A stretch of DNA of 64,000 nt from Acidimicrobiales bacterium (GTDB lineage Bacteria > Actinomycetota > Acidimicrobiia > Acidimicrobiales > Bin134), in assembly GCA_965115985.1 (NCBI GenBank), contig OZ220474.1:2396909-2460908 (forward strand), read 5' to 3'. The number at the start of each line of letters is the position of its first letter. The stretch's first letter is position 1. Positions 335 to 61,226 of the stretch are shown here, one piece after another. The notes under the pieces are model-generated. The model saw only the letters and a program-made list of their open reading frames with translations, was not told the DNA's origin and ran no database searches. Both the position numbers and the translations under genes were made by a program.

Positions 335-2584
335 CTAGGCCGGGCGGGTCAGCGGCAGTTCCACCACCATCTCGGTGAACTCGCCCGGTTCGGTGTTGAC
401 GGTGATGGTGCCACCATGCTCCCGAATGATGTCGTTGGACAGGGCCAGGCCCAAACCGGTGCCCTCATTGGTGGGTTTGGTGGTGAAGAAGGGGTCGAAG
501 ATTTTCTCGGCCACATCCGGGGGGATGCCGTTTCCGTTGTCCCTCACGCTGAGGATGGCGCTCTCCTCGGTACGGCGGGTCCTCAAAACGATGGTGGGGG
601 AGAAGTCATCGGCATCGGAGGAGCCCGATTCGATCAGTTCCTTCTGCTTCTTGTTGGTGGCGTAGCCGGCATTGGCCACGAAGTTGAGAAACACCCGGCC
701 CAGGTCTTGGGGCACGACCTCGAGTTGCCCCATGTCCGGGTCGAACTCCTCGTCCATGGTGACCTGGAAATCGGGATCCTGGGCTCGAGCACTGTGAAAG
801 GCCAGCAGGGAGTGCTCATGGATCAGATCGTTGATGTTGGTGAGCTGGGTCTCGCCCCCGCCCCGGCCCATCAGGAGCATGTCCTGGACGATCCGGTTGG
901 CCCGGCTGCCGTGCGATTGAATGCGTTCCAGGTTGTCGTTCAGGTCCTGGTTGATCTCCTCCAGCAGGTCACGCTGCTCGTCGGTGAGGTCGTCGATGAA
1001 CTCTTCCACTATCTCGGTCATCTCTTCGAGCAATTCGGCCGATGCCGCGGAGAAGTTGTTGATGAAGTTGAGCGGATTGCGGATCTCATGCGCCACTCCG
1101 GCGGTGACCTCTCCCAGCGCGGCCAGCTTCTCCCGGGCGACGATCTGATCCTGGGCTTGGCCCAACTCCTCCAGCACGGCTTGAAGTTCGTTGTTGCGCT
1201 CGCCCAGTTCCTGGGCCAGTTCCTCCACCAGGTTCAACCGCTGAATCTCCAGGGCGTGGCGACGGAACACCTCAAGAGCCGAGGCCATCTCCGCGATCTC
1301 GTCGCGACCACTGACCTCCACCTCCTCCTCCAACTCCCCCTTGGCCAGTGTTCGCATGCGACTGGACAGGCGGCCGATTCGGCGCAGTAGGACACGGCCC
1401 ACGAAGAGCCAACTGATCAGGCCGGCACCGATGACACCGATAACGCTGATGATCACCAGCAGGATTCGGGCAGTGCTGATGGTTTGCGCGGAGTTCTCGG
1501 TGGCCTCGTCGGCCCCGGCCCGGGCGGCGTCCACGAGGGCGTTGACCTCTTCCAGAAGTTCGACCGCGATGGTTTGGTTCTGAGCCAGAAGGTTGTTCTG
1601 GCGCTCGATGATCTTCAGGCGGTCGACCGATACCTCAAAGGCGCTTTGCTCCCCGTTGCCGAGGGCCAGTAGCTGGTTCACCGCTGATTCCAGTCCCGGG
1701 ATCATTTCCGACGCGGCCACCGCGGACAGGCTGATCCGGATGCGATCCTCCACCGACTCGAAGCTCTCCTGTAGAGGTTCGACGAACTCGGCGGTGGAAG
1801 CAATCAGAGCGCTGCCCATCAATTCGGATGCTTGGGCAACGTCGGCCTGCAACGCGTTGAAGTGTCGATAGAGGAGCAGCTCGTCTCCCGATGTGCGAGT
1901 GGCGGCATCGGTGGGCTCGGAAACGAAGTCTCGATATCCGGTTACCTGGAAGAAGAGTTGGTCGTCGATGGCGGGCAGAATGATGCTGTTGGCTTGATCG
2001 CTCAGAGCCGGAATCTGGTTCTGGAGTTTTTCGATCTCTCCGGTCAAGCCGTAGTAGTGGGGCATATCGGCAGTTATGGTCGTGATGTTCGTCTCCAACG
2101 TTCTGGCGGATTCCCGGATTGCTTCAACGTGTACGTCTCCCGGGTTCTCATCGGCGAGGAGTTCAAAATTCTGCTTGAACTCCTGTTGGGCAGTGGTGAC
2201 TTCTGCGGAGATGGTCGAGAATTGATCGGGGGAAGACGTGGTTAGTCTGGGAGCGGCTGCCACCAGAGCGCTGCTCAATTCGGCCAGCCGAAATGCGCCG
2301 GCCAACTCGGGTACGCTTTCCTGGTTCACTCGATTCTGGCTTCTGCTTACGTTGGTGAACGAGATCCAACTCACGACGCTGGCTACGATGGTCAGAACAA
2401 CGGCACCGAAGATCCCGGCATACAATTGAGTGGAAATCCGTCGATGGGCGGCCGGACGTTGAGCGCCGGTGTCGGGGTTCTCGATCTCGGGGGTTTGTGG
2501 GTCGGGTGTGGCGGTCACGGGCTGGTACTCCCCGGTGTCGGGGTTCTCGATCTCGGGGGTTTCTGGGTCGGGTGTGGCGGTCAC
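335..2584 (-). CDS. Sensor histidine kinase (2 TM, ~300-aa extracytoplasmic domain, HAMP, HisKA, HATPase_c)
   Basis: H-box HEIRNPL, DNGNGI and GTGLGL ATP-lid motifs, a HAMP-like segment after the second TM. GTG start 2584 overlaps the upstream TGA (GTGA). An alternative in-frame GTG lies at 2518 in the second repeat copy. Confidence 0.9.
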   Translation of the reverse strand: MTATPDPETPEIENPDTGEYQPVTATPDPQTPEIENPDTGAQRPAAHRRISTQLYAGIFGAVVLTIVASVVSWISFTNVSRSQNRVNQESVPELAGAFRLAELSSALVAAAPRLTTSSPDQFSTISAEVTTAQQEFKQNFELLADENPGDVHVEAIRESARTLETNITTITADMPHYYGLTGEIEKLQNQIPALSDQANSIILPAIDDQLFFQVTGYRDFVSEPTDAATRTSGDELLLYRHFNALQADVAQASELMGSALIASTAEFVEPLQESFESVEDRIRISLSAVAASEMIPGLESAVNQLLALGNGEQSAFEVSVDRLKIIERQNNLLAQNQTIAVELLEEVNALVDAARAGADEATENSAQTISTARILLVIISVIGVIGAGLISWLFVGRVLLRRIGRLSSRMRTLAKGELEEEVEVSGRDEIAEMASALEVFRRHALEIQRLNLVEELAQELGERNNELQAVLEELGQAQDQIVAREKLAALGEVTAGVAHEIRNPLNFINNFSAASAELLEEMTEIVEEFIDDLTDEQRDLLEEINQDLNDNLERIQSHGSRANRIVQDMLLMGRGGGETQLTNINDLIHEHSLLAFHSARAQDPDFQVTMDEEFDPDMGQLEVVPQDLGRVFLNFVANAGYATNKKQKELIESGSSDADDFSPTIVLRTRRTEESAILSVRDNGNGIPPDVAEKIFDPFFTTKPTNEGTGLGLALSNDIIREHGGTITVNTEPGEFTEMVVELPLTRPA

Positions 2585-2599
2585 GGGCTGGTACTCCCC
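2468..2599. repeat. 66-bp tandem duplication x2 spanning the SBP-stop/kinase-start GTGA junction
   Basis: ggtgtcggggttctcgatctcggggg... begins at 2468 and 2534 with 1 mismatch. It encodes the duplicated TATPDP(E/Q)TPEIENPDTG N-terminus of the kinase. Confidence 0.95.
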
Positions 2600-4014
2600 A
2601 GAGCACTAGCGGATCGGTAGCGGCCATTGGCATCCAGGACGGTCAAAAAGACGGCATCCGAACCTTGGTTGTCCACTGCCCGGTCTGCTTCTTCGCCGAA
2701 GTCGAGCACGAATCCGTCGATGCTGATCCGACCGGCACCCAATAGGTTCTCCAGGAAGCAGTCGCGGGTCGGATCGGAACCGCACGCTTCCAGTCCGGCT
2801 ATGGCCAGCCTCCCGGCCAGGTATCCCTCGAGGGACACGAAACCGGGTTCGGCTTCGGGGTCGAACCCGGCCAGGGCTCGGGTATAGGAGGCCACGACCG
2901 GGATGGAGTTGTCGTGGGGGAACGGAACCACCTGGGTGACGTAAACACCCTCCCCGCCCGTCCCCAACTCGGTGGCCAACGCGTTACTGCCCACGAAGGA
3001 GACCGTCATGAATATGGGATCGAAGCCGATGTGGCGGGCCCAGGATATGACGGCGGCGACCGGTTGATAGGCCCCCACCAGGATCACTGCCTCGGGATCG
3101 CCCCGTCTCAGGTCGAGCAGCGCCGACTTCACTGCGGTGGTGTTGCGGGGGTAAACGCCGGTGGCCACCGGGACCATTCCTCGCCGCCCCAGTGCGGCCA
3201 ACACCCCGTTGTAACCGGCCCGCCCGAACGAGTCGTCCTGGAACATCACCGCGATACGACTGATGCCGGCATCGGTGGTGAGACGTTCGACCATCTCCTC
3301 GGTCTCCTGGGCGTAGGAGGCCCGGAGGTTGACGATGTTGTCCTGACCGTCGTTGCGCAAAAAGCCCGCTCCGGTGAACGGAGCTACGTAGGGGACCCCG
3401 GCATCGGCTGCCACCGGGGTGGCCGAACGCGAAGTCGGTGTGCCCACCGCGCCGATGAGGGCGAAAACCCGCTCTTCGTCGATGAGGGCCTGGGTGTTGG
3501 TTATGGCCGCCTCGGGTTCGTAAGCGTCGTCGCGGGTTGTCAACTCGAGGCGACGTCCGTTCACCCCGCCCCGGCGGTTCACCTCCTCGAAGGCTGCCTG
3601 GATGCCGAGCCTCATGTTGATGCCCAGTTCCTGAGCCGGCCCGCTCAGGGCTGCCGACTGCCCGAAAACCACCCGGTCGTCGAAAACCCCGAGTCTTCCC
3701 GGGTCCACCAAGGTCGGTTCGGGAGTCGGCGGGGGCGTTGAAGGAGGAACCACCGGATCGGACCCCCCCGATCGACATCCCGATGCGATGAGGGCCAGCG
3801 CGGCGATGACGAGTCCTACTGGTCGCAGGGCGCGGGGTTTGATGACGAGTCCTACTGGTCGCAGGGCGCGGGGTTTGATGACGAGTCCTACTGGTCGCAG
3901 GGCGCGGGGTTTGATGACGAGTCCTACTGGTCGCAGGGCGCGGGGTTTGATGACGAGTTGGAGTTCCCTCGGTTTGGTGGACAGGTTGTTTTGCTGGATT
4001 GTAGTGGTGTTCAT
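2581..4014 (-). CDS. Periplasmic substrate-binding lipoprotein, LivK/Peripla_BP_6-like; native 5' end severed by IS3, current start inside the IS end
   Basis: The mature part resembles branched-chain amino-acid binding proteins. Lipobox LIASGC is preceded by four KPRALRPVGLVI repeats. ATG 4014 lies in the IS terminal repeat. The long track ORF 2581..4593 is read-through into the IS. Confidence 0.75.
   Translation of the reverse strand: MNTTTIQQNNLSTKPRELQLVIKPRALRPVGLVIKPRALRPVGLVIKPRALRPVGLVIKPRALRPVGLVIAALALIASGCRSGGSDPVVPPSTPPPTPEPTLVDPGRLGVFDDRVVFGQSAALSGPAQELGINMRLGIQAAFEEVNRRGGVNGRRLELTTRDDAYEPEAAITNTQALIDEERVFALIGAVGTPTSRSATPVAADAGVPYVAPFTGAGFLRNDGQDNIVNLRASYAQETEEMVERLTTDAGISRIAVMFQDDSFGRAGYNGVLAALGRRGMVPVATGVYPRNTTAVKSALLDLRRGDPEAVILVGAYQPVAAVISWARHIGFDPIFMTVSFVGSNALATELGTGGEGVYVTQVVPFPHDNSIPVVASYTRALAGFDPEAEPGFVSLEGYLAGRLAIAGLEACGSDPTRDCFLENLLGAGRISIDGFVLDFGEEADRAVDNQGSDAVFLTVLDANGRYRSASALGSTSP
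3805..3958. repeat. 36-bp in-frame tandem repeat x4.3 (left half of an array split by IS3)
   Basis: Unit gatgacgagtcctactggtcgcagggcgcggggttt encodes VIKPRALRPVGL. The array ends at the IS3 target-site duplication. Confidence 0.95.
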
Positions 4015-4880
4015 GCGGCTTGGTGGTGGGTGTAGGTCTGGGCGGGGGTGCGGTGGCCGAGTGAGCTGTGGTGGCGTTGGCGGTTGTGGAACACTTCGAT
4101 GTAGTCGAACAGGATGGTTCGGAGTCGTGTGTGGTGGAGGTGTTCCCAGGGGCCGTGGATGTGGCGGATTTCTTTTTTGAGGGTGGCCCAGAACGATTCC
4201 ATGGCGGCGTTGTCGTAGCAATCTCCGACGCTTCCCCAGGAGCCGACGAAGTCGGCTTGGGCGAGGCGGTCGCTGAACGCCATGGAGGTGTATTGGGTTC
4301 CGTGGTCGCTGTGGTGGATCAGTCCGGGTTCGGGTCGGCGGCGGGCGATGGCCATGGTCAAGGCGTCGACGACGAGGTCCGTGGTTTGGTGCTCGGCGAT
4401 GGACCAGCCCACCAGGGTGCGGTCGCAGAGGTCCAGGATTCCCGCCAGGTGGACTTTGGTGTCGGCGCAACCGAACGAGGTTATGTCGGCCACCCATTTG
4501 CGGTCGGGAGCCTCGGCGGTGAAGTCCCGGTCCAGCAGGTCCCCGGCGGGCACTGTTTTGGCGCCGGGATCGCGGCGACGACGGTGGGAACACGCCCCCA
4601 CCAGGCGGTTCGCTCGCATCAGGCGGGCCACCCGGTTGCGGCCCACGCGGTGACCGCGGCGGCGGAGCTGCTCGTGGATCCTCGGGGAGCCGTAGGTGCG
4701 TCTCGAGGTCTGGTGGATCTCGCGGATCTCGACCAAAAGCTCGGCGTCGGAGGTCTCACGCCTGGACGGGCGTCTTTTGGCCCAGGCGTAGAACCCGGAC
4801 CGGCACACCCCGGCGACGCGGCACAAATCGGTGACCCGGTACTCGGCTCGGTGGTCGTGGACGAACCGGTAGCCGATCAC
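4011..4880 (-). CDS. IS3 transposase OrfB (DDE integrase core)
   Basis: rve-type sequence (HSDHGTQYTS, CYDNAAMESFWATLK). It overlaps orfA by 4 nt. Stop TGA 4011-4013 overlaps ATG 4012-4014 of the SBP fusion start. Confidence 0.9.
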   Translation of the reverse strand: MIGYRFVHDHRAEYRVTDLCRVAGVCRSGFYAWAKRRPSRRETSDAELLVEIREIHQTSRRTYGSPRIHEQLRRRGHRVGRNRVARLMRANRLVGACSHRRRRDPGAKTVPAGDLLDRDFTAEAPDRKWVADITSFGCADTKVHLAGILDLCDRTLVGWSIAEHQTTDLVVDALTMAIARRRPEPGLIHHSDHGTQYTSMAFSDRLAQADFVGSWGSVGDCYDNAAMESFWATLKKEIRHIHGPWEHLHHTRLRTILFDYIEVFHNRQRHHSSLGHRTPAQTYTHHQAA

Positions 4881-5173
4881 CGGTTCGTCTCCCTCGCGAA
4901 ATACGCGGCCGCCTTCCCCAGAATCTCCAAATCGATCTCCTGCTGAGCCACCCGCCTGCGCAACCTCTTCAACTCCTCACGCTCGGACACGCTCAACGCC
5001 TCGGGATCGGCCGCTCGCTCGCGTCGCTCACGATCGGCCTTGACCCAGTTCCACAGCGTTCCCTCGCTGATCCCCAACGACCGGGCCACCCCAGCAACCG
5101 AACGACCCGACGACACCGCCAACGCCACCGCCTCACGACGAAACTCAGGCGGATACTTCGACACACGACCCAT
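4877..5173 (-). CDS. IS3 transposase OrfA (HTH)
   Basis: MGRVSKYPPEFRREAV... with a leucine-zipper-like end. An AGGAGG site lies upstream of ATG 5173. The track ORF extends to 5239, but that part is the IS end. Confidence 0.85.
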   Translation of the reverse strand: MGRVSKYPPEFRREAVALAVSSGRSVAGVARSLGISEGTLWNWVKADRERRERAADPEALSVSEREELKRLRRRVAQQEIDLEILGKAAAYFARETNR

Positions 5174-5238
5174 ACGAGCCTCCTTCCCCAGGGACCGAAC
5201 CCCCATAATCAGGTGTCCACCAAACCGGGGCAACTCCA

Positions 5239-5411
5239 AGTCCTACTGGTCGCAGGGCGCGGGGTTTGATGACGAGTCCTACTGGTCGCAGGGCGCGGGG
5301 TTTGGGGACGAGTCCTACTGGTCGCAGGGCGCGGGGTTTGATGACGAGTCCTGCTGGTCGCAGGGCGCGGGGTTTGGGGACGAGTCCTACTGGTCGCAGG
5401 GCGCGGGGTTT
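5239..5411. repeat. 36-bp tandem repeat x4.8 (right half of the IS-split array; alternating gat/ggg variants)
   Basis: Same unit as 3805-3958. Joining 3958 to 5242 restores a seamless 9-copy array. Confidence 0.95.
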
Positions 5412-5432
5412 CCTCCGGCCGGCGGGTTTCAC
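5242..5432 (-). pseudogene. Detached original 5' end of the SBP gene
   Basis: GTG 5432 overlaps the TGA of the upstream kinase gene (GTGA) and reads MKPAGRRKPRALRPVGLV... through the repeats until the IS3 insertion. Confidence 0.7.
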
Positions 5433-5860
5433 GACTCGGGAAGCACGACCAGCTTGAGGTGGTTGCGGCCGTGCTCGTTGTGGTACTCCAAATCCTGGCC
5501 CAAGGTCCGCACCAGATAGAGCCCCAGACCACCGATGGGGCGCTCGGCCAGTGACAACGTCAGGTCGGGCTCGGGGGCGTCCTCGAGTGGATTGAAGAGG
5601 GCTCCGTCGTCGGTCACGCGGATGGTCAGCGCTCCGTCGTCGGATTCCAGCTCGAGGTCGATGGTCGTGAGTCCGCTGGTGTCCCCATGGGTGAGGGTGT
5701 TGAGCACCAGTTCTTCCAGTATCAGATTGGCCCGCATGGTCAACGTCACCGGCCAGTTCTCCGCCTCGGCCATTTCTTCCAGGACATTCTCGATCTCCGG
5801 CAGGACGGACGAGGGTTCACCCTGTTCCAGAGGGAGAGAGAAGCGCAGCGATCGCTGCAT
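5429..5860 (-). CDS. RsbW/SpoIIAB-like anti-sigma-type serine kinase (HATPase_c_2)
   Basis: 143 aa with NTLTHG and GGLGLYLV motifs, in an operon with STAS and PP2C genes. Confidence 0.8.
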   Translation of the reverse strand: MQRSLRFSLPLEQGEPSSVLPEIENVLEEMAEAENWPVTLTMRANLILEELVLNTLTHGDTSGLTTIDLELESDDGALTIRVTDDGALFNPLEDAPEPDLTLSLAERPIGGLGLYLVRTLGQDLEYHNEHGRNHLKLVVLPES

Positions 5861-6103
5861 GTCAGCAGCTAGCTCCCACGGTCGGCGCGAGGATCGAGTG
5901 GCTAGCTCCCACGGTCGGCGCGAGGATCGAGCGGCTACCTCCCACGGTCGGCGCGAGGATCGAGCGGCTACCTCCCACGGTCGGCGCGAGGATCGAGCGG
6001 CTACCTCCCACGGTCGGCGCGAGGATCGAGCGGCTACCTCCCACGGTCGGCGCGAGGATCGAGCGACTAGCTCCCACGGTCGGCGCGAGGATCGAGGCGG
6101 CCA
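5861..6103. repeat. 33-bp tandem repeat x7 filling the whole intergenic gap
   Basis: Unit ggctacctcccacggtcggcgcgaggatcgagc with contiguous copies and no spacers. It carries the 80-codon ORF 5862..6104. Confidence 0.95.
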
Positions 6104-7255
6104 TCAGGGGCGGCGAAGCGTCAGACAGGTGATGTCGTCGGACTGGGGGGCGTCGCCCGTGAAACTCCTCACACTCTCGAACACCGCCTGGTTGGCGGCC
6201 GACGCGCTGTCGGGGGGGTGACCGTTGAAGACCTCGGTCAAACGATGCATACCGAACTGTTCGCTGGTGGCGTTCATGGCCTCGGTGACCCCATCGGTGA
6301 ACAACACGATGGTGTCCCCCGGGGCCAACGTGATCGTCTCCTGGGAGTAGGTGATGTCGGGAGCGACCCCCAGGGCTACACCATCGGTGAGCGGCAACTC
6401 GGTGACCGTGCCGTCCCTGCCGACCAGAAGCGGGGGGTCATGGCCCGCGGTCGAATAGGTGAACGACCCGGTGTCCGGGTTGAACAGGGCATAGATCAAT
6501 GTCACGAACATGAAGGTGGGGTTGTCCTGATGGAGTTGGTTGTTGACCTCGCCCAGCACCATTTCCGGGTCTCGGACACCGATGGCCGCCCCTTTCAGTG
6601 CGGTACGGCTGGACATCATGAACATCGACGCGGGGATTCCCTTGTCGGACACGTCGGCCACCACGAGGCCGATTTTGTCCTCGAGCGTGAAATAGTCGTA
6701 GAAGTCGCCGCCGACATTGCGAGCCGGTTCCATGTTGGCGGCCACTTCGTATCCGTCGTTGGCCGGGGGGGTCTTGGGCAGGATGGATTGCTGGAGTTGG
6801 CTGGCAATGCTCAGCTCGTTCTGAAGGGCCACCAGTTGGTCTCGGGACGACAACGCCTCCCGCCACTCGGCCAAGTGTTCCAAGGTGCGGGTGATGGTGA
6901 TCTTGAGGTCGTCGAAGTCGATGGGCTTGGTTACGAAATCGAAGGCCCCCCGGTTCATGGCGGTGCGGATGTTGTCCATGTCACCGTAGGCGGAGATGAT
7001 CACCGCCCTGAGATTGGGATCAACCCCGGGAAGCTGCTGGAGCAGGGTGAGGCCATCCATCTTGGGCATGTTGATGTCCGACAGCACCATATCGATGGTC
7101 GGATCGGCGTTGAGCTTTTCCAACGCCTCCACCCCATTTTGAGCAAAAACGAACTCGTATTCGTTGGAGCGGATCTTGCGGCGCATCCTCTGAAGGATCA
7201 GAGGTTCGAGGTCCGGTTCGTCGTCGACGACCAGGATTCTGTAGGGATGATGCAA
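6104..7255 (-). CDS. Response-regulator receiver fused to PP2C/SpoIIE phosphatase (RsbU-like)
   Basis: N-terminal REC domain (VVDDEPD...DINMPKMDG) and a C-terminal PP2C-type domain (GGDFYD, DGVTEA). Confidence 0.9.
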   Translation of the reverse strand: MHHPYRILVVDDEPDLEPLILQRMRRKIRSNEYEFVFAQNGVEALEKLNADPTIDMVLSDINMPKMDGLTLLQQLPGVDPNLRAVIISAYGDMDNIRTAMNRGAFDFVTKPIDFDDLKITITRTLEHLAEWREALSSRDQLVALQNELSIASQLQQSILPKTPPANDGYEVAANMEPARNVGGDFYDYFTLEDKIGLVVADVSDKGIPASMFMMSSRTALKGAAIGVRDPEMVLGEVNNQLHQDNPTFMFVTLIYALFNPDTGSFTYSTAGHDPPLLVGRDGTVTELPLTDGVALGVAPDITYSQETITLAPGDTIVLFTDGVTEAMNATSEQFGMHRLTEVFNGHPPDSASAANQAVFESVRSFTGDAPQSDDITCLTLRRP

Positions 7256-7259
7256 GGGA

Positions 7260-7589
7260 TTACCCCTGTTTGGCGTCTTCCACCGATGGAAATACGTTGA
7301 TGATCTGGTCGAAACCGCTGATGCGGAATACGTCGCCCACGGTCTCCGACAACGAGCAGATGCTGAAGGACTTGTTCTGCTTGTCGAGGCCCTGGGCCGC
7401 CATCAGCAGTACCCGCAACCCGGCACTGCTTATGTATTCGAGGCCGCCGAGATCCAGGATGACCTTCTGGTCGCCGGGATCGAACAAGCCCTGGAGGGAC
7501 TCGAGGAGATCGGATGCGTTGGATCCGTCCACCCGGCCGGAAGCATTGACGACCAGTACATCACCATTGCGATCATGACTCAATTCCAT
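7260..7589 (-). CDS. STAS-domain anti-sigma-factor antagonist (RsbV/SpoIIAA-like)
   Basis: MELSHDRNGDVLVVNASGRVD...YISSAGLRVL. ATG 7589 is preceded by AAGAGAGG. The track start 7649 is probably too long. Confidence 0.85.
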   Translation of the reverse strand: MELSHDRNGDVLVVNASGRVDGSNASDLLESLQGLFDPGDQKVILDLGGLEYISSAGLRVLLMAAQGLDKQNKSFSICSLSETVGDVFRISGFDQIINVFPSVEDAKQG

Positions 7590-7674
7590 GGCTGGGGCCT
7601 CTCTTTTCTTATTCCGTGGCCGAATATTTTGCCAGCCAGCACTATACACAACCCACCGGGCTCAACGGGTAGCG

Positions 7675-7828
7675 GCGACCGGCAGCGCTGGTGGGGGCGA
7701 GGGGTCAGCGGGGTTGGGGCGCGCTGGTGGGGGCGAGGGGTCAGCGGCGACCGGCAGCGCTGGTGGGGGCGAGGGGTCAGCGGGGTTGGGGCGCGCTGGT
7801 GGGGGCGAGGGGTCAGCGGGGTTGGGAG
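7675..7828. repeat. 36-bp tandem repeat x4 (72-bp higher order) copying the 3' end and stop of the thiolase-like gene
   Basis: The 26-nt core gcgctggtgggggcgaggggtcagcg occurs at 7685, 7721, 7757 and 7793, with alternating 10-nt linkers. The last core contains the real stop at 7813-7815. Confidence 0.9.
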
Positions 7829-8991
7829 AGGATGAGCGCGCTGGTGGGGACGGCGGTGCCTGCGGTGGCCAGCACGTTCTGCACGTTGTCGATCTGGTTC
7901 ACCGAGGTGCCCCGGATCTGCCGCACGCCCTCGGCGATGCCGTTTAGACCGTGGATGTAGGCTTCCCCGAGCTGCCCGCCGTTGGTGTTGATGGGTAGGC
8001 GGCCGTCCCGCTCCAGATGGCCGTCGCGGATGAAGTCCTTGGCCTCGCCCCGAGCGCAGAAGCCGAACTCCTCCAGTTGGGGAAGTACCAGTGGGGTGAA
8101 GTGGTCGTAGATTATGGCGGTCCGGACGTCATCGGCCGACAGGCCGCTGGACCGGTAGAGCTGGCGGGCGCACAACCCCATCTCGGGGATGCCGGTGATG
8201 CTGTCCCGGTAGTAGCTCCTCATCATGTGCTGGTCCTCGGCCGCGCCCTGCGCGGCGGCGGCGACCACGGCCGGCTTCTGCTTCAGGTCCCGGGCCCGCT
8301 CGGCCGAGGTCACCAGCAGGGCCTGGGCCCCGTCGGTCTCCTGGCAGCAGTCCAGCAGGTGCAGCGGCTCCACGATCCAGCGGCTGTTCTGGTGGTCCTC
8401 CAGGGTGATGGGCCGCTGGTAGAAGTGGGCGTGGGGGTTGGTGGCCGCGAACGACCGGTCCACCACCGACACCCGGCCGAAGTCCTCGGAGGTGGCTCCG
8501 TACTCGTGCATGTAGCGGGTGGCGAACATCGCCACCCAGGAGGCCGGGGTGACCAGCCCGAACGGCGAGCTCCACGAGAAGCTGACCTCGGCGGCTTCGG
8601 CCCCGGCGGGCCGATCCTGCACCCCGGTACCGAACCGATGCCAGGAGCGCTCGTTGAAGGCCCGGTAGCACAGCACGTAGTCGGCTGCCCCGGAGTAGAC
8701 GGCCTGACAGGCCAGGGCGACCACCCCGCAGGCCGCCCCGCCCCCATGATGGACCATGGAGAAGTGGGTCAGCTCCTCGACGCCCAGGTTGCGGGCCAAC
8801 TCTATTTCGGGATTCTGCTCGGCCGAGTAGGTCACCATGCCGTTGACCTTCTCCGGGGGGAGGCCGGCGTCCTCGCAGGCGGCCAGGCAGGCTTCCACCG
8901 CCTGGGCCATGGGGGTGCGGCCCGATTCCTTGGTGAACCGGGTGGCTCCGATGCCGGCGATGGCGCAGTGGTAGGCGTATTTCAGGGTCAT
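7813..8991 (-). CDS. Thiolase-fold protein, SCP-x/lipid-transfer (Ltp)-type
   Basis: 392 aa. MTLKYAYHCAIAGIGATRFTKESGR... is typical of non-canonical thiolases that pair with DUF35 proteins. Confidence 0.8.
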   Translation of the reverse strand: MTLKYAYHCAIAGIGATRFTKESGRTPMAQAVEACLAACEDAGLPPEKVNGMVTYSAEQNPEIELARNLGVEELTHFSMVHHGGGAACGVVALACQAVYSGAADYVLCYRAFNERSWHRFGTGVQDRPAGAEAAEVSFSWSSPFGLVTPASWVAMFATRYMHEYGATSEDFGRVSVVDRSFAATNPHAHFYQRPITLEDHQNSRWIVEPLHLLDCCQETDGAQALLVTSAERARDLKQKPAVVAAAAQGAAEDQHMMRSYYRDSITGIPEMGLCARQLYRSSGLSADDVRTAIIYDHFTPLVLPQLEEFGFCARGEAKDFIRDGHLERDGRLPINTNGGQLGEAYIHGLNGIAEGVRQIRGTSVNQIDNVQNVLATAGTAVPTSALILSQPR

Positions 8992-33534: not shown

Positions 33535-33541
33535 GCCCACC

Positions 33542-33547
33542 AGTCTA
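33542..33547 (-). promoter_or_regulatory. -10-like TAGACT box placed for a leaderless transcript
   Basis: TGTCACAGGTGTCGGTAGACT-N7-ATG. The same arrangement is found upstream of the second DUF222-HNH gene at 49028-49033. Confidence 0.45.
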
Positions 33548-34175
33548 CCGACACCTGTGACAACATCTACTGTGAGCCCTGGTCACCACGAAAAATTGTT
33601 TATAGATAATTGAAAATAGCTGATACTTGCTAATACCGACTCGGAACTTGAAACCCAACCCGTCGCGACCTCCGTTGAAGTTCATCTTTCCTCACCACCA
33701 CCGAGGTCGAGGATGCACATTGAGTTAAGTGGCCCCTGCCCCCCCTGTCTCACCAAACCGCTCACAGGGAGCCGCAGCGGTTCCCGCTCCGATCACCACC
33801 GACAGCCCGAAACCCTGGAGAAGCCGTCCCTTGCCCCCGCAGGTCACCGCCCCGACCACCACCGCCCTACCAAACCCCCCGCTGACTCACTTCTTGCTTC
33901 CTCGCCAAGCCTGGAACTGCATGTGAGTGTGGGCGATCACGGTGCTCCAGCTAAACTCCGCTTCTTGCGCTCCCCCGACAAACCATGTACCTTCCCCGAT
34001 ATCAGCGACAAAACCCGCGAGACTCGTTCCCTCTGCGGCCAGACCTAGATATGACCGGGCTTCGTTTCTGGTTCTCTCTAAATCTGGCTGCGGGTTGTCG
34101 CTGATACGAAAAGTCCGGCTTATTTGTAGGGAACCACCCTTGATGACTACCACCGACCCCTGCTAAAATGTTCTG

Positions 34176-34481
34176 ATGGTCACCCCACCACCAACGGACG
34201 ATACCACCGAGGCCGACAATAACCCGGCCCCGAACACACCACCACCAATCCAACCACCTACAACCACCAAACAAAAGAGACCTTTCTACCATTTTTGGCG
34301 TATAAACTTGCGCAAAGTTTATAGTACTGTTTTTACTGTTATTATGTTTTTAATACCAGTGACAGCAATTAGAACATTGCATTGGCTTGGCCTTTATTAT
34401 TGGATTAGTTTTATAGTTGGTGTAATTGTTGCAGCATTGGTAGCAATTACGCTTACTAGAATAGAAAATATAAAGAGATAA
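34176..34481 (+). CDS. Small membrane protein, paralog 1 (Pro/Thr-rich N-terminus, 2 TM)
   Basis: PPIQPPTTTKQKRPFYHFW is followed by two hydrophobic segments and a basic tail. Confidence 0.55.
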   Translation: MVTPPPTDDTTEADNNPAPNTPPPIQPPTTTKQKRPFYHFWRINLRKVYSTVFTVIMFLIPVTAIRTLHWLGLYYWISFIVGVIVAALVAITLTRIENIKR

Positions 34482-34571
34482 AATCTTAGAATAAAACTTC
34501 CATGACCATGCAGGGGTCGGTGGTGGTCATCAAGGGTGGTTCCATTAGAGATAATCGAGGGGAATACGAAA

Positions 34572-34724
34572 ATGTTTCGCAAGTGTTTGGTGATTACGGT
34601 TTGCCTTACCGTGTTTGCTACGGTGACTCCGGCGGTGCAGGCTCACGACCTGGAGACTGTGACTAGGACGATCCCGGCGGTCACGCGACATGAACCCATT
34701 TACAAGGATGTCGAAGAAACCTAA
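34572..34724 (+). CDS. Small secreted peptide (50 aa)
   Basis: MFRKCLVITVCLTVFATVTPAVQA signal-like N-terminus. A GAGGGG site lies 8 nt upstream. Confidence 0.4.
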   Translation: MFRKCLVITVCLTVFATVTPAVQAHDLETVTRTIPAVTRHEPIYKDVEET

Positions 34725-34770
34725 AAATTGAGGGTTCCCTATATGGAGACTTACAATTTGAGGGTTGGCC

Positions 34771-34779
34771 GTGGTATAA
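34771..34779 (+). promoter_or_regulatory. Extended -10 element TGgTATAAT
   Basis: tggtataat lies about 26 nt upstream of ATG 34805, with GAGAGGAA between them. Confidence 0.35.
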
Positions 34780-34804
34780 TCCGGCTACTTGAGAGGAACT
34801 GCCT

Positions 34805-35113
34805 ATGACAACCACCAACACTCCAACAATGAACAGCACCCCGGACATACCCCCACCACCAACCTAACCACCCACAACTACCGGACAAAATAAGATATGG
34901 TACAAACCCTCCTGGAGTTCCATTAAATATTATTTTTGGAATTTTATTGCGCTGATTATATCAAATACAGTGTCTAATTTTTTGCCCGAACCTTTTTATA
35001 GTCATCGCTATCTTCTTCTTATAATAGTAGGTTCAGGTACCTTAATTATATTTGGTGCAATTGTACCTGGCGCATTGGTTTGGGCATGGTTGCGGTCAAG
35101 ATACGGTCGATGA
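34805..35113 (+). pseudogene. Small membrane protein, paralog 2, with in-frame TAA at 34865-34867
   Basis: MTTTNTPTMNSTPDIPPPPT*PPTTTGQNKIWYKP...LPEPFYSH... is homologous to the neighbours but interrupted. No in-frame ATG follows the stop. Confidence 0.5.
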
Positions 35114-35412
35114 GGAGCCTAAAAGTAATAATCGAGTAACTATCAAGGGGACTGTTAGTTATGAGAAAGCCTTTTGAATTGGTAGTCCCCTAATCGTGGG
35201 TGAGCAAATGGCGGGGTTCCTATAGCAAGCACGACAATAAACACTACAACTACTAAGCTCTTACGAAGCCTCTTTGTGTTCCTCTCGATTATCTTGAGGG
35301 TAACCACCCTTGACGACCACCACTGACCCCTGCTACATGGCCCCGAAAGCTTTAACGTAACATTTTATCTCATAACTAACAACCCCCTCGATAGTTACTC
35401 GATTACTATTAC

Positions 35413-35862
35413 TTAGACTTTCCGTTGTCTATTCCTAAGCAACATAAATACACTAATGAGTATTATAGCAATACCAAACACTCCAGCAAGTAGAGTAAAA
35501 TCACTAGCAAAAGGTTCAGGTAAATAGCGGGATATCAAAAACGCCAAAAAAATCACTAACCAATGAACTAACGTCCCAATAGGTATTATAATCCAAGAAG
35601 TGCTGCGCTTTCTCTTTAGTTTGGTAGTTGTGGGTGGTGGGGGAATGGTTGGGGCCATGTCGGCATCGGTAGCAACCGGTGGTGCGGCGGTGTTGGCCGA
35701 GGTGTGGTAGGCACCGGTGGCAGTGTCGGCTGGGGTGGCTGGTGATCCGATGTTGGCCATCATAACTCGGTGGCGGGGCTGGGGGTGGCTGTTGAGCCTG
35801 GTTGGCGGCGGGGCCGGGGGTGGTGCAGATTCCCGGCCCTCGTCGGTGGGGGTCTGTTCCAT
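35413..35862 (-). CDS. Small membrane protein, paralog 3 (start uncertain)
   Basis: PPPPTTTKLKRKRSTSW..., LPEPF between two TM segments, and a basic tail RNRQRKV. Confidence 0.55.
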   Translation of the reverse strand: MEQTPTDEGRESAPPPAPPPTRLNSHPQPRHRVMMANIGSPATPADTATGAYHTSANTAAPPVATDADMAPTIPPPPTTTKLKRKRSTSWIIIPIGTLVHWLVIFLAFLISRYLPEPFASDFTLLAGVFGIAIILISVFMLLRNRQRKV

Positions 35863-35891
35863 TTCGAGGGGGTGGCGGGTAGGGTGGGGGT

Positions 35892-36575
35892 ATGCAGGTA
35901 GATATTCGTCATGCTCCCAGTTTTGCGGTTGCCCGGTGCGTTCTGAGCGGTGGGGAACAGGTCAAGGTCGAGGCGGGGGCCATGTCGGCCCATTCCATGG
36001 GGATGTCGCTGGAGGCCAAGATCGATGGCGGGGTGTTCAAGGGGCTCAAGCGCAGCATCCTGGGTGGCGAGTCGCTGTTCTTGTCCACCTTCACCGCCCC
36101 GGCCGAGGGTGGTTGGGTGGATGTGGCCGCCAAGCTGCCCGGCGACCTGCGGGTACTCGAGTTGGACGGCTCGCAGGCGTGGGTGATCGAGCGGGGCAAC
36201 TGGCTGGCCTCCGATGCCTCGGTGGGGGTGGACACCAAGTGGAGCGGGTTCAAGTCGATGGTCGGCGGCGAGGGCGGTTTCATGGTTCACGCCGAGGGCA
36301 CCGGCAAGGTGGTGGTGGCCTCCTACGGGGCCATCGATGTGATCTCGCTGGCGGCCGGCGAGTCGGTGGTGGTGGATACCAGTCACATGCTGGCCTTCCC
36401 CGACACGGTTAGCTACGAGCTGCGTCGGGCGGTGGAGGGTCGCTCGATCCAGTCGATGAAGTCGGGCGAGGGCTTCGTATTCCACTTCACCGGCCCCGGC
36501 GACATCTTGACCCAGACCCGCAACCAGCAACAGCTCATCGCCTGGATCAACACCGAGATCGGTTCCCGGGAGTAG
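35892..36575 (+). CDS. AIM24/DUF124 (TIGR00266) family protein
   Basis: MQVDIRHAPSFAVARCVL..GEQVKVEAGAM...GESLF is characteristic of the family. Confidence 0.85.
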   Translation: MQVDIRHAPSFAVARCVLSGGEQVKVEAGAMSAHSMGMSLEAKIDGGVFKGLKRSILGGESLFLSTFTAPAEGGWVDVAAKLPGDLRVLELDGSQAWVIERGNWLASDASVGVDTKWSGFKSMVGGEGGFMVHAEGTGKVVVASYGAIDVISLAAGESVVVDTSHMLAFPDTVSYELRRAVEGRSIQSMKSGEGFVFHFTGPGDILTQTRNQQQLIAWINTEIGSRE

Positions 36576-42976: not shown

Positions 42977-43318
42977 TCAGCCGTCGCCGAGCAGTCGGTT
43001 GACCATTCGGGCCATCGGGCCGGGTCGGGGAGGTTCGTAGTCGTCGGGCACCAGGTGGGGGGCGTAGTGGGCCAGGGTGGTCATTACCCGGTCGGGTGTG
43101 GGGTTCACCATGGCGGTGTCACCCACCACCACGGTGGGCACCGTTTCGTTGCCGGCGGCCACCGATCGGACAAAGGCGGCCGCCGAGGGATCCTCCCAGA
43201 TGTTGTGCATGTCCATGTGTACGCCGAGTTCGTCCAGCTTGCGGTGCAGGTGAGCGCAGAACCCGCATCCCGGTCGCCAGTAGAACGTGATGCCGCCCAC
43301 CGGGGAGTTCGAGCTCAC
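42977..43318 (-). CDS. Glutaredoxin-like protein (mycoredoxin type, CGFC)
   Basis: ITFYWRPGCGFCAHL...TVPTVVVG. The GTG start at 43318 lies within a GTGA. Confidence 0.8.
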   Translation of the reverse strand: MSSNSPVGGITFYWRPGCGFCAHLHRKLDELGVHMDMHNIWEDPSAAAFVRSVAAGNETVPTVVVGDTAMVNPTPDRVMTTLAHYAPHLVPDDYEPPRPGPMARMVNRLLGDG

Positions 43319-43432
43319 GGCACGTAGGGCAGGGCCAGCACCACCCGCTCGGCCAGGTCGCGGTCGCCGCTCACGGCACGTAGGGCAGGGCCAGCACCAC
43401 CCGCTCGGCCAGGTCGCGGTCGCCGCTCACGG
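43314..43432. repeat. 56-bp tandem repeat x2.1 of the GTGA junction and last 19 codons of the DinB-like gene
   Basis: ctcacggcacgtagggcagggccagcaccacccgctcggccaggtcgcggtcgccg occurs at 43314 and 43370, with a partial copy at 43426. Confidence 0.95.
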
Positions 43433-44168: not shown

Positions 44169-44314
44169 CCTGGTGTCCTTTTCATCAATGGATCGTCCGT
44201 CATGTCTGCCGGCCGCCTGGTGTCCTTTTTATCAATGGATCGTCCGTCATGTCTGCCGGCTCTTCATCCGGGGGCCGCTTCCGACGTGTAGCCCTTCATC
44301 CGGGGGCCGCTCAT
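44165..44314. repeat. Composite repeat (47-bp x2 and 33-bp x2) carrying five ATGA overlaps
   Basis: cctggtgtcctttt.atcaatggatcgtccgtcatgtctgccgg occurs at 44169 and 44216. cttcatccgggggccgct occurs at 44263 and 44295. Confidence 0.9.
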
Positions 44315-47202: not shown

Positions 47203-47231
47203 TTGACACGGGGGGGGGGGGGGGGTAGTTA
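47203..47231 (+). promoter_or_regulatory. TTGACA-c-G16-TAGTTA element (candidate promoter with homopolymer spacer)
   Basis: A -35-like TTGACA (47203-08), a 17-nt spacer made of c plus 16 G (47210-25), then TAGTTA, 11 nt before ATG 47243. An identical 28-nt core lies inverted at 61200-61227. Confidence 0.4.
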
Positions 47232-54941: not shown

Positions 54942-54975
54942 CCCTCGGCAAAAATAACTCCCACCGCTCATCGGA
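54654..54975. repeat. Segmental duplication copy 1 (HRDC-coding 3' end plus ~30 nt downstream)
   Basis: About 93% identical by eye to 61868-62172. Confidence 0.85.
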
Positions 54976-55315
54976 TATCGAATGTTGGCAATACCAACAG
55001 GGGAGAGACAGGTGAGGAGTTTATAAGAAGGTGTCTGAGGAGAGCAGGCTTTTCAGATAATGTTCAACATCTGGAGGAAGAACGAAGCCAACGAAGGACT
55101 AGCTGGCCACTTAGTGATGATGGCACAGGATCAGGATATTACCTATAAACTAACTAAACAATTAGCAGATATGAAACCTATAGATGAAATGGCTGAAATC
55201 CTACTTGAAAAAATGGTTGATGAATAAGTACTCCTGATAATTAACTTTGGCTACGCAAATAGATTGTGTTATAGCTCTCAATCCACCCGCTACTATTCAA
55301 AGTAGTAGGCTGATT

Positions 55316-57469
55316 TCAATTACTGGAATTCCACCGTCCATCCAAGCGCATTGAAGTCAAGCCCCAACATTCTGCTTTCCCAGTTTCCCGGAGGCCACAA
55401 GCATGGTAACCGTGGACTGATACCGATGTGAACCGACCACTGGGTACGTTCGTTATCAAATCTAGGCTCCTCCCGTACACATCTAGGTCACTCCCCCAGC
55501 ACACAATGGTGCCGTTTTCTCTTAGTCCACACGAGAACATAGCCTCTTTGGATGAGGCGATCGCGCTGAATCGACCATCCGGGGGATCTAGCACCCCGGT
55601 AGGGTTTCCATCTGGGTAGTAAACTTTATCATCCCCCCAACAAACCAGGGTACTATCCTCGCGTATACCACATGCATAGAAGAGCCCTGTGGACACTGCA
55701 GTAAACCGTCCTTCTGGTGCGTTCAGTTCCTTGAAAAAGTATTCATAAGTCCTATCATCATCCCGGATAAATGTTGTTGAAATCGCATCTTTTTTCCAGC
55801 ACTCGACTGTCCCATCTTCTCGCAGGCCACAGGTATGAAGGTCGCTCGTAGAAACTTCCATAAACTCGCCGCCAGAGTAATTATATAAAGGCCATAGTGT
55901 ATAGCCATTGGAATTCCAGCATACAATAGTATTGTCGATAGAGACACCACAATACAACCCCAATAAATTACTACTACTACCACTTATAGAGGTGAACTGG
56001 CCCTCAGGCTCATAGAAAGAAGTCTTATTCAAAGCCATACTATAACCATAGTCCCAGCAGCGGATATTTCCATCTATTAGAAGACCGCAACTATCACGAC
56101 GAGTATGAGCAATATCAATAAACTTGCCTTTAGGCATATTTAGTGTTTCCCCCATTCCCCATCCCCAGCACTGGATCGTACCATCGTTACGAATACCGCA
56201 TGTGGAGTTGCCATATCCTGCATGGACACTTTTGAACTGGGAGTCAGGTGCACCAGTCTTCTCAATACTGCACCGGTCACCCTCGGGCCAACCAAGTAGT
56301 TTGAGGTGCCCACAGCCGATGTAAGAAGTTATATTACCACCATAGTTGAAAGTATACGGGCTGCACCCTATACCGTACATGATCGAACAATCTTGTGGGT
56401 GGTCAAGATAAAACACCGAATGTCCAATCTCATGTGCAACTAAAGGAAGATTCCAATATCTATGGCAATCAGCCTTATCCATGCTCAAACGCGAGTTACC
56501 AGACTCACCTCCGTCAGGACAATTAGGTGCAAATACATGACGGTACCAAGGTTCTTCATACCATGGATGGGCACTAATATACCATTCATAAAATGATTCA
56601 GGAGTATAAACCACTGCATACTTTCCATAACTCGCGTAGCCTGCCGCACCACCCCCTGGGGCTGCATCAACTAATATTAACAAATTGTTGTAGTCTCCTA
56701 AATCTTGGATTGCAGTAAGACATGGCTTACCTTCTAACTTACTAAGGCCGCCTATAGTCAAACCTTTCCATTCTATATTTGGTGAAACAATTCCTCCATA
56801 AATGAATTCAAGGCTTACTAGGTTAGATGATTGCTTAGCGTAGAAAGTAGACACTACATCATTCAATCTAGCTATATCATGATTGATATATATATCTGTG
56901 TATCGCTGACTATCAGGCACACAGTAGAACACTGTAATATCTACCTTACCTGTGAAAGGCACTGGTGAGAGTGGGAGGGTCAATGGTGAGCTGTATAGCC
57001 ACCGGCCGGTGGGAGCATCAAGGGGGAAATAGCGGACCTGGGGCAAGAGGTGACCACCCCATGTGTTATCAACTCGACCCAACTGAAGGGCGAACTCAGT
57101 CCTGCCACTGATCAGCCTGCGAGCTGCAATACGGACGGTTCCAGTTTCAATAGTAAGCGGTGAACTGGATAGCCACCAGTCGATGGAGGTGGAAGTAGGG
57201 AAGTAACGAGTGCTGGGCAAGAGGCGGTCACCCCAAGTGTTATCGAGCTGACGTAACTGAGCGGCAAACTCAATTCTACCGTCACTCAATTTGCGGGCCG
57301 CGATACGTACCTCCAACTCATCGTCATCACCAATCAGTTCCTGTGCAGTGGCTTCGGAAGAAACAACCACCAAGCCCACCGCTATCGACACCACCACCAA
57401 ACCGACACCCACCAGACTCCTCCACCATTGTCGAATTGGAGAGGAAGGGGAGAGGAGGGGAGGGTTCAT
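55316..57469 (-). CDS. Secreted multidomain protein: 2 N-terminal ~55-aa modules + HExxH metalloprotease-like domain + degenerate RCC1-like repeats
   Basis: Signal/TM region WWRSLVGVGLVVVSIAVGLVVVSS, VAHEIGHSVFYLDHP, and seven C(G/W)-type blades (CGIRNDGTIQCWG ... ACGLRETGKAECWG). The gene is A+T-rich. Confidence 0.75.
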   Translation of the reverse strand: MNPPLLSPSSPIRQWWRSLVGVGLVVVSIAVGLVVVSSEATAQELIGDDDELEVRIAARKLSDGRIEFAAQLRQLDNTWGDRLLPSTRYFPTSTSIDWWLSSSPLTIETGTVRIAARRLISGRTEFALQLGRVDNTWGGHLLPQVRYFPLDAPTGRWLYSSPLTLPLSPVPFTGKVDITVFYCVPDSQRYTDIYINHDIARLNDVVSTFYAKQSSNLVSLEFIYGGIVSPNIEWKGLTIGGLSKLEGKPCLTAIQDLGDYNNLLILVDAAPGGGAAGYASYGKYAVVYTPESFYEWYISAHPWYEEPWYRHVFAPNCPDGGESGNSRLSMDKADCHRYWNLPLVAHEIGHSVFYLDHPQDCSIMYGIGCSPYTFNYGGNITSYIGCGHLKLLGWPEGDRCSIEKTGAPDSQFKSVHAGYGNSTCGIRNDGTIQCWGWGMGETLNMPKGKFIDIAHTRRDSCGLLIDGNIRCWDYGYSMALNKTSFYEPEGQFTSISGSSSNLLGLYCGVSIDNTIVCWNSNGYTLWPLYNYSGGEFMEVSTSDLHTCGLREDGTVECWKKDAISTTFIRDDDRTYEYFFKELNAPEGRFTAVSTGLFYACGIREDSTLVCWGDDKVYYPDGNPTGVLDPPDGRFSAIASSKEAMFSCGLRENGTIVCWGSDLDVYGRSLDLITNVPSGRFTSVSVHGYHACGLRETGKAECWGLTSMRLDGRWNSSN

Positions 57470-57519
57470 CTTTAAAGATTATACTTAGGACATCGGGATT
57501 GCAACTGTAACACGGCGTT

Positions 57520-61197: not shown

Positions 61198-61226
61198 GTT
61201 CTACCCCCCCCCCCCCCCCGTGTCAA
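61198..61226 (-). promoter_or_regulatory. Inverted twin of the TTGACA-c-G16-TAG element
   Basis: Plus strand ctaC16gtgtcaag (C run 61204-61219). On the minus strand this reads TTGACA-c-G16-TAGAAC, about 80 nt upstream of ATG 61118. Confidence 0.35.

Follow-up and report, generated by a model that had tools for sequence, protein, structure and literature searches.

Why should the gap between two genes of a signalling operon be filled by a tandem repeat that forms an open reading frame (ORF) from the one gene's stop codon to the other's start codon? The question is raised by a 64,000-nucleotide stretch of contig OZ220474.1 of an Acidimicrobiales bacterium (assembly GCA_965115985.1, positions 2,396,909 to 2,460,908), referred to here as the window, to which all coordinates below refer. 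In a putative partner-switching operon on its minus strand, the gene for a receiver-PP2C (SpoIIE family) phosphatase of 383 aa (6104..7255) is separated by 243 nt from the gene for an RsbW-like serine kinase or anti-sigma-type protein of 143 aa (5429..5860), and this gap is filled by 7.2 copies of a 33-bp unit. Our analysis leads to the reading that an older and conserved intercistronic mini-ORF, which would relay ribosomes from the phosphatase gene to the kinase gene, was expanded in frame in this lineage as an internal 33-bp piece went from one copy to seven, and that the array is the product. We give this reading a probability of about 0.6.

A sequence-only reading of this DNA had described an 80-codon bridge made of seven 33-bp units between two partner-switching genes, and its ORF, junction and array coordinates all proved correct. 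Tandem Repeats Finder (TRF) places the array at 5864..6101 on the minus strand (period 33, 7.2 copies, 96% matches, score 425) with the unit TCGATCCTCGCGCCGACCGTGGGAG[G/C]TAGCCGC. A search with the 33-mer gave seven matches at up to three mismatches versus none in 100 shuffles, and successive units lie exactly 33 nt apart. The four units in the centre are identical; of the edge units, one on the 5' side and two on the 3' side differ by 2 nt each. Identical GGT central units flanked by GCT edge units imply at least two rounds of expansion. The bridging mini-ORF (5862..6104, minus strand) has 80 codons, versus 13–18 in relatives, and its predicted product is MAA(SILAPTVGxSR)n. At its upstream end, in the TGATG junction (6102..6106, minus strand), the PP2C stop TGA (6106..6104) overlaps the mini-ORF ATG (6104..6102) at a spacing of −1. 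At its downstream end, in the TGAcATG junction (5858..5864, minus strand), the mini-ORF stop TGA (5864..5862) is followed by c5861 and the kinase ATG (5860..5858), a spacing of +1. The assignment of the flanking genes to a partner-switching system was borne out by Pfam domain matches (Response_reg, 7e-25, and SpoIIE, 3e-52, in the phosphatase; HATPase_c_2, 4e-20, in the kinase). The remark that a unit of 11 codons keeps the bridge in frame at any copy number holds as well. Since the unit length is a multiple of three, no copy number can shift the frame, and the array does not have the makings of a phase-variable contingency switch.

The open frame alone is unremarkable and weak evidence for a function, because the array leaves four of the six frames open along its full length. 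By codon-usage log-odds the bridging ORF scores −2.5, which is the best of the six frames and not gene-like, versus +62 for the kinase, and no Pfam family matched the 80-codon ORF above threshold, the sole match being sub-threshold. We saw no Shine-Dalgarno (SD)-like purine run upstream of the mini-ORF ATG (CTTCGCCGCCCC), so that access to the mini-ORF would be limited to ribosomes that terminate on the PP2C gene. The SD-like motif nearest to the kinase start is GGGAG, located 12 nt upstream of the ATG and inside the mini-ORF; it is weaker and farther away than that of most relatives (GAGGGG, ∼8 nt).

The evidence that carries our reading comes from 37 related Acidimicrobiia loci, mostly of Candidatus Poriferisocius, which are sponge symbionts. 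A kinase-based scan of species-representative genomes yielded 29 loci from sponge-associated Acidimicrobiia, many of them Candidatus Poriferisocius, with kinase identities of 67–78% and PP2C identities of 78–88%, the latter aligned over residues 1–383. Further loci were obtained from a protein collection and one metagenome scan (L038, 81%; L040, 74%; L039, on a contig of 2x coverage), which brings the range of the kinase homologues to 67–81%, and five loci of 55–59% identity (L041–L045) were included as outgroup. TGATG, TAATG or ATGA is present at the position of the PP2C stop in all 37 loci. A mini-ORF of 13–18 codons, or a chain of two, begins on this stop in 36 of them, and the stop-to-start bridge that had been proposed from the window alone was thereby upheld. 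In 28 loci the bridge is a single mini-ORF of 14–18 codons that ends at +1/+2 or −4 from the kinase start, and three loci (L023, L029, and L039) have a two-ORF chain. Altogether, the end of the mini-ORF or chain lies within 2 nt of the kinase start, or overlaps it, in 31/37 loci. The pattern is tightest in the Poriferisocius clade, where the last mini-ORF stop precedes the kinase start by 1–2 nt in 27 of the 29 scanned loci and overlaps it in one, and where the spacers nearly always start with TGATG (or ATGA/TAATG) and end with TGA-N-ATG. In the outgroup an ORF of 13–16 codons ends 8–14 nt upstream of the kinase start, inside the SD sequence. The only locus without a mini-ORF is L027, in which 4 nt separate the two genes (TGATGAAATG). 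Homologous operons of other phyla likewise have no mini-ORF at this place, and the two genes are joined by a TAATG overlap (L033) or with a stop and a start 1 nt apart (L031).

With the 4-nt exception of L027, the PP2C–kinase spacer measures 42–57 nt in the unduplicated loci, and it is unduplicated in 34 of the 37 relatives. The distance from the mini-ORF ATG to the stop is 45, 48, 54, or 57 nt, and the phase is kept in all of these classes. By a rough estimate 6 of ∼7 independent length changes are in phase (binomial p ∼0.01, an approximation because the loci are related). On this comparative evidence the bridge is older than the array, and the data support the view that a stop-to-start bridge has been evolutionarily maintained. 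The comparison with relatives strengthens the bridge-ORF reading substantially.

What has been kept is apparently the frame and not the peptide. The peptides encoded by the different spacer classes are mutually unrelated (for example MSAPARSQPATRGR, MFALLDRSLPPLPDTRNW, and MNSLHFPPASARSYARVG). The mean column entropy of the mini-ORF at codon positions one, two and three was 0.46/0.41/0.60 and 0.43/0.61/0.35 in two spacer classes, while the 50 neighbouring codons of PP2C and kinase gave 0.15/0.14/0.50 and 0.22/0.05/0.49 in the first class and similar values in the second. The flanking genes therefore show a third-position excess, whereas the mini-ORF is flat and has no 3-nt periodicity, which argues that its peptide is not under selection. 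As a control we followed the PP2C frame past its own stop in the 23 loci in which PP2C and kinase share a frame: a further stop occurs inside the spacer in seven of these loci, and the mini-ORF frame is interrupted in none. Across all loci an early end of the mini-ORF was found only in L023, in which a frameshift is followed by a restart at ATGA. An ORF that is maintained while its peptide is not conserved and its substitutions lack codon periodicity suggests that translation itself is what is kept; translation, not its product, seems to be conserved.

The array itself has a local origin. Collapsed to one unit, it becomes a 48-nt spacer (TGATGGCCGCCTCGATCCTCGCGCCGACCGTGGGAGCTAGCTGCTGAC), a length shared with the commonest spacer class, and this spacer is homologous to the single-copy spacers of relatives and can be aligned with them colinearly; 48 nt plus six in-frame copies of 33 nt (198) gives the 246 nt observed from the beginning of the PP2C stop to the beginning of the kinase ATG. 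This colinearity indicates an internal duplication of resident sequence and not an inserted element. No copy of the 33-mer was detected outside 5865..6095 in the 64-kb window at up to three mismatches, no exact copy of the 25-nt unit core was present in the 39 related loci searched or in the metagenome collection, and the unit showed no similarity to any of the 24 other arrays of the window. Sequence from the same species was also sought, and none was found: exact-protein look-ups were empty, the best kinase in the protein database was 81% identical, and the metagenome scans gave no match to the unit DNA and one locus, at 74%, in the protein search.

According to a review, translational coupling works best when stop and start are −4 to +3 nt apart, has dropped 3–10-fold once they are about +40 nt apart, and past 30–40 nt is weak or absent (PMC12548453). 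A gap of 45–57 nt, or of 243 nt, exceeds this range, so that the kinase would be uncoupled from the phosphatase unless the gap is bridged, and both junctions in the window (−1 and +1), as well as those of 31/37 relatives, fall within about −4 to +3 nt. The delivery of a ribosome can be the sole role of a short ORF, and the ORFs of mycobacterial interspersed repetitive units (MIRUs), which are coupled at −4, are a likely natural case (PMC12548453). We propose that ribosomes ending the receiver-PP2C gene at UGA would restart on the overlapping AUG (UGAUG), translate the mini-ORF, terminate at its UGA, and initiate once more at the kinase AUG, 1 nt further on. The kinase would in this way be made in step with the phosphatase across 45–57 nt in relatives or 243 nt here; the act of translation would matter and the peptide would not. 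Translation of the mini-ORF, and a dependence of kinase expression on this translation, are inferences.

No sign of an RNA-unfolding mode emerged. The array RNA is less structured than 200 shuffled versions (−106.5 versus −132 kcal/mol, z = +5.1), RNAalifold detected no covariation in the spacers of 10 relatives, and 20 sequences gave no consensus structure at the kinase start. A hairpin in the unit or spacer that would sequester the SD sequence was rejected on these grounds, and the same results speak against coupling through the unfolding of an inhibitory RNA structure; a palindrome at the kinase start (GCAGCGATCGCTGC) is specific to the window and not conserved. Reinitiation through two closely spaced junctions is accordingly favoured over unfolding as the probable route. 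An internal promoter or a known RNA was likewise discarded, since no sigma-70-like promoter was found in 5200..8000 and no Rfam match in the whole window.

The array is one of many. At a period of at least 15 and a score of at least 100, the window contains 25 non-redundant arrays that occupy 10% of its bases, with periods of 32–111 bp (one TRF-scored at 462). This amounts to 3.9 arrays per 10 kb. Homologous loci of the same genus, 348 kb in all and with complete long-read chromosomes among them, have 0.11 per 10 kb, so that the tandem-array load is ∼30x that of relatives. None of the window arrays within 6 kb of the kinase is present in the homologous loci of relatives. The array units are mutually unrelated, which points to local duplications in what is apparently a lineage-specific burst. 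The expansion between phosphatase and kinase is most likely a near-neutral product of this high duplication load, tolerated because a unit that is a multiple of three and free of stops leaves the relay intact.

The arrays were assigned to contexts via a codon-usage gene map and Pfam checks. Arrays inside genes have periods of 48, 66, 48, 111, and 462, and those in translated gene starts periods of 36 (a lipoprotein signal peptide), 66 (a histidine-kinase start), and 42, all of them multiples of three. Untranslated spacers hold arrays of any period (65, 71, 65, 71, 38, 62, 40, 32, 50, 46, 72, 51, and 60). The duplications that we identified across −4 or −1 junctions form a third class, with units of 56, 47, 44, and 71 nt that all leave a remainder of two when divided by three; a unit of this length across an overlapping stop and start creates a chain of mini-ORFs and thus an unbroken relay. 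Between the MDMPI and glutaredoxin genes, a 56-bp array of 2.1 copies (43313..43432, minus strand) copies the last 19 MDMPI codons plus GTGA, and the resulting mini-ORF (VSGDRDLAERVVLALPYVP) is GTGA-linked on one side to the MDMPI stop and on the other to the glutaredoxin start. The 142-nt gap between the enoyl-CoA hydratase and MDMPI genes (44169..44310, minus strand), which includes a 47-bp array of two copies, holds four ATGA-linked mini-ORFs of 16, 6, 16, and 12 codons. In relatives this junction is a plain ATGA overlap (L047), an independent duplication with a two-ORF chain (L046), or an uncoupled gap of 31 nt (L048). At the PP2C–kinase junction itself, the PP2C stop/mini-ORF start was duplicated independently in L029 (3426..3531, 44-bp unit) and L039 (∼4760..4900, 71-bp unit), in each case with a TGATG/TAATG motif and a resulting two-ORF chain. 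This pattern suggests that the ancestral PP2C–kinase mini-ORF arose by duplication of a directly overlapping junction, and that duplications are retained or lost under selection for an unbroken relay.

Several points weigh against a maintained ribosome relay. The related loci are phylogenetically non-independent, and only ∼6–8 independent length changes support the conservation of the frame. A GC-rich frame of 15 codons would stay open by chance in about two of three cases, a period divisible by three has a prior of one in three, and 3 of ∼13 untranslated-spacer arrays have such a period as well. The SD-like motifs near the kinase start could allow independent initiation. Finally, the insertion of an IS3 element downstream could mark operon decay, with the array as a sign of relaxed selection.

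These points lead to the alternative that survives best, although we regard it as unlikely, namely that the bridging frame is incidental: the kinase would be translated from its own SD sequence, the mini-ORF would not be usefully translated, and the array would be spacer junk whose period is a multiple of three by chance. That four of six frames are open, that a GAGGGG/GGGAG motif precedes the kinase ATG in all Poriferisocius loci, that codon usage in the mini-ORF is not gene-like, and that a period divisible by three arises by chance in one third of arrays and is seen in some untranslated spacers would all be expected if the frame were incidental. Chance accounts less well for an ATG on the PP2C stop and a TGA at the kinase start that stay in phase through several length changes in an otherwise fast-evolving spacer, for a control frame that gains stops where the mini-ORF frame does not, and for independent duplications at coupled junctions that all fall into the length class preserving the relay.

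A second alternative, which the sequence-only reading had put forward, accepts the relay and gives the copy number a function. Slippage in units of 11 codons would alter the number of ribosomes that reach the kinase and so provide a heritable tuning of the kinase:phosphatase ratio, which could operate through drop-off, pausing at internal GGGAGG motifs, or standby binding of 30S subunits. The array is near-perfect, and its four identical central units imply recent and repeated slippage; each of these four units also contains GGGAGGT, a strong SD-like motif out of range of any start codon, and the PP2C–kinase junction was duplicated independently in L029 and L039. That these GGGAGGT motifs pause ribosomes or bind 30S subunits is speculation. 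On the other side, 34 of 37 relatives manage with an unduplicated spacer, a 33-bp array needs no special explanation in a 64-kb window with ∼25 arrays, reinitiation takes equally many steps with one unit or seven, and the array RNA, being unstructured (z = +5.1), offers no structural handle. We consider such a copy-number rheostat quite improbable. A wider version, in which relay-ORF length and the number of GGGAGG sites form a reversible heritable rheostat and selection for the relay decides which junction duplications survive in this repeat-rich symbiont, seems to us improbable too, if a shade less so.

The remaining alternatives fare far worse than the relay. Read-through of the UGA would yield a receiver-PP2C-linker-kinase fusion with the array as a repeated linker, (RSSRRPWEVAA)n; a receiver-PP2C-kinase fusion architecture occurs in HsbR of Pseudomonas, and in the window the two genes do share a frame that is open across 246 nt. 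The shared frame is, however, an arithmetic consequence of the −1/+1 junction geometry; it is found in only 23 of 34 related loci, 7 of which have stops, and the codon log-odds for the PP2C frame are −33. With neither the shared frame nor its openness conserved, read-through as a conserved mechanism is largely refuted and retains a very small probability. The same small chance applies to the 80-aa repeat peptide (SILAPTVGGSR)n as a functional small protein: its frame scores best of the six and has proper start and stop codons, but it matches no Pfam family above threshold, its codon usage is neutral, and the orthologous peptides are unrelated in sequence and free of purifying selection, so that this candidate was rejected. 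An assembly artefact is the least credible explanation of all, given that the proteins of the window lie on a single 3,371,582-bp contig, that the units carry ordered edge variants, and that the coding arrays among the 25 in the window all keep frame, unlike random misassembly.

How the locus relates to known systems follows from these comparisons. The classical form of translational coupling uses an overlapping stop and start, such as the TGATG of trpE-trpD, or ATGA. The window has the same junction motifs, −1 upstream and +1 downstream of the mini-ORF and +4/−4 elsewhere in the operon; unlike classical overlap coupling, the link from PP2C to kinase is indirect, through an intervening and unconserved ORF. 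A further relative is the synthetic bicistronic design, which, together with short ribosome-delivering ORFs, is described in PMC12548453 (its references 75 and 78). Common to both are a short leader ORF that would serve just to carry a ribosome to the following start, an SD-like motif for the downstream gene in its 3' end, and a stop adjacent to the start. The mini-ORF of the window differs in that it lacks an SD sequence of its own, consists of 80 codons of tandem repeat, and would itself be entered by reinitiation, giving two coupled junctions in series.

The sequence-only reading had likened the bridge to the MIRU ORFs of Mycobacterium tuberculosis operons. MIRUs are dispersed, apparently mobile elements of 40–100 bp present at ∼40–50 loci per genome (PMC3184786; PMC12548453), and those of the senX3-regX3 intergenic region were described by Supply et al. 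(1997), as summarized in PMC12548453 and PMC3184786. Like the MIRU variable-number tandem repeats (VNTRs) of senX3-regX3, the array consists of tandem units between two genes of a signalling operon in an actinobacterial lineage, and its internal ORF overlaps or abuts the flanking stop and start with a frame-keeping unit length. This part of the comparison holds. It fails for unit size (33 bp instead of 40–100 bp), for dispersal, as the unit is unique within the 64 kb and unrelated to the other arrays, and for origin, since the array is a duplicated resident spacer and not an insertion with target-site repeats. The bridging ORF furthermore predates the repeat, and the host belongs to a different class of Actinomycetota. 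The likeness is therefore an analogy; membership in the MIRUs or in any mobile repeat family was rejected for a unit that is unique and locally derived. Neither tandem repeats of sponge Acidimicrobiia nor VNTRs located in coupling spacers turned up in a literature search, in which the name Poriferisocius came up in only two papers, with one mention each.

The bridge is embedded in an operon whose other junctions are also close. The first gene (7260..7649, minus strand) encodes an RsbV/SpoIIAA-like antagonist with a STAS domain (Pfam STAS, 6e-20); its start is likely ATG 7589, which gives 109 aa as in L038 and L041–L045, and its stop lies 4 nt ahead of the PP2C start. Downstream of the kinase, the start of a Peripla_BP_6 lipoprotein gene together with the first half of an in-frame 36-bp array (5239..5432, minus strand) begins at GTG 5432 in a GTGA overlap with the kinase stop, and the second half of this array (3805..3958) continues into the body of the gene (2581..3958, minus strand; Pfam Peripla_BP_6, 2e-55). 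The last gene of the coupled chain encodes a HAMP-HisKA-HATPase sensor kinase, as identified by Pfam (335..2584, minus strand; GTGA overlap at 2584). With spacings of +4, −1/+1, −4, and −4, the junctions form a continuous coupled chain, and the order STAS, receiver-PP2C, kinase, periplasmic binding protein, and HAMP histidine kinase is the same in the relatives with gene calls. The STAS, HATPase_c_2, and SpoIIE (PP2C) plus Response_reg domains, all above the Pfam cut-offs, make up the gene set of a partner-switching system. As in RsbV-RsbW-RsbU modules, a STAS antagonist, an HATPase_c_2 kinase, and a PP2C phosphatase share one operon; unlike in these modules, the phosphatase carries a receiver domain, and the genes that follow in the operon encode a periplasmic binding protein and a HAMP histidine kinase, with no sigma factor.

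Two further rearrangements affect this operon. An IS3-family insertion sequence of 1280 bp (3959..5238, minus strand) with orfA/orfB (Pfam HTH_Tnp_1 and rve), inverted repeats TGGAGTT...AACTCCA, and a 3-bp target duplication ACT interrupts the 36-bp array, which has ∼9 units (3805..3958 and 5239..5411). Removing the element in silico restores one ORF from GTG 5432 through (KPRALRPVGLVx)9 into the Peripla_BP_6 lipobox LIASGC; the insertion therefore severs the Peripla_BP_6 gene from its coupled start. A 66-bp array of two copies (2466..2599) spans the GTGA junction at 2584 and duplicates the first 22 histidine-kinase codons in frame. In L039, two copies of a 51-bp repeat were observed at the start of the Peripla_BP_6 gene.

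Other repeats and islands lie elsewhere in the window. A perfect 27-nt inverted repeat, CTTGACAC-G16-TAG, is found at ∼47203..47229 and ∼61200..61226, ∼14 kb apart, with a 16-nt homopolymer in each copy; a solo IS3 terminal repeat (TGTCCACCGAACCGGGGCAACTCCA) is located directly upstream of the first copy, and the segment between the two, which could be mobile or invertible, includes a low-GC island and a repeat-protein gene. Two islands (33541..35996 and 54942..57713) have 49% and 47% G+C, compared with 64.6% overall, and the codon-usage map calls no gene in them; they are probably foreign DNA. The second one holds a stop-to-stop ORF of 720 codons (55316..57478, minus strand). Arrays of a 111-bp (37-codon) unit at 58723..60231 (13.6 copies) and 62259..63740 (roughly 13) are ∼80–89% alike and resemble paralogous repeat-protein sequences; a called minus-strand ORF contains the first, and the second is cut by the window end.

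Taken together, the locus appears to be a tidy natural example of a translational-coupling mini-ORF, analogous to MIRU-VNTR, and not a new mechanism. It is a counterpart in nature to synthetic bicistronic designs, and also to MIRU ORFs. The comparison among uncultured bacteria is evidence that evolution can keep a non-coding-like mini-ORF purely to pass ribosomes from one signalling gene to the next, here between two genes for which the kinase:phosphatase ratio matters. It also indicates that such a coupler can absorb large tandem expansions as long as they are in frame. The length class of the junction duplications suggests a simple model for where these couplers come from, in which a bridging mini-ORF is born when an overlapping stop and start is duplicated in tandem.

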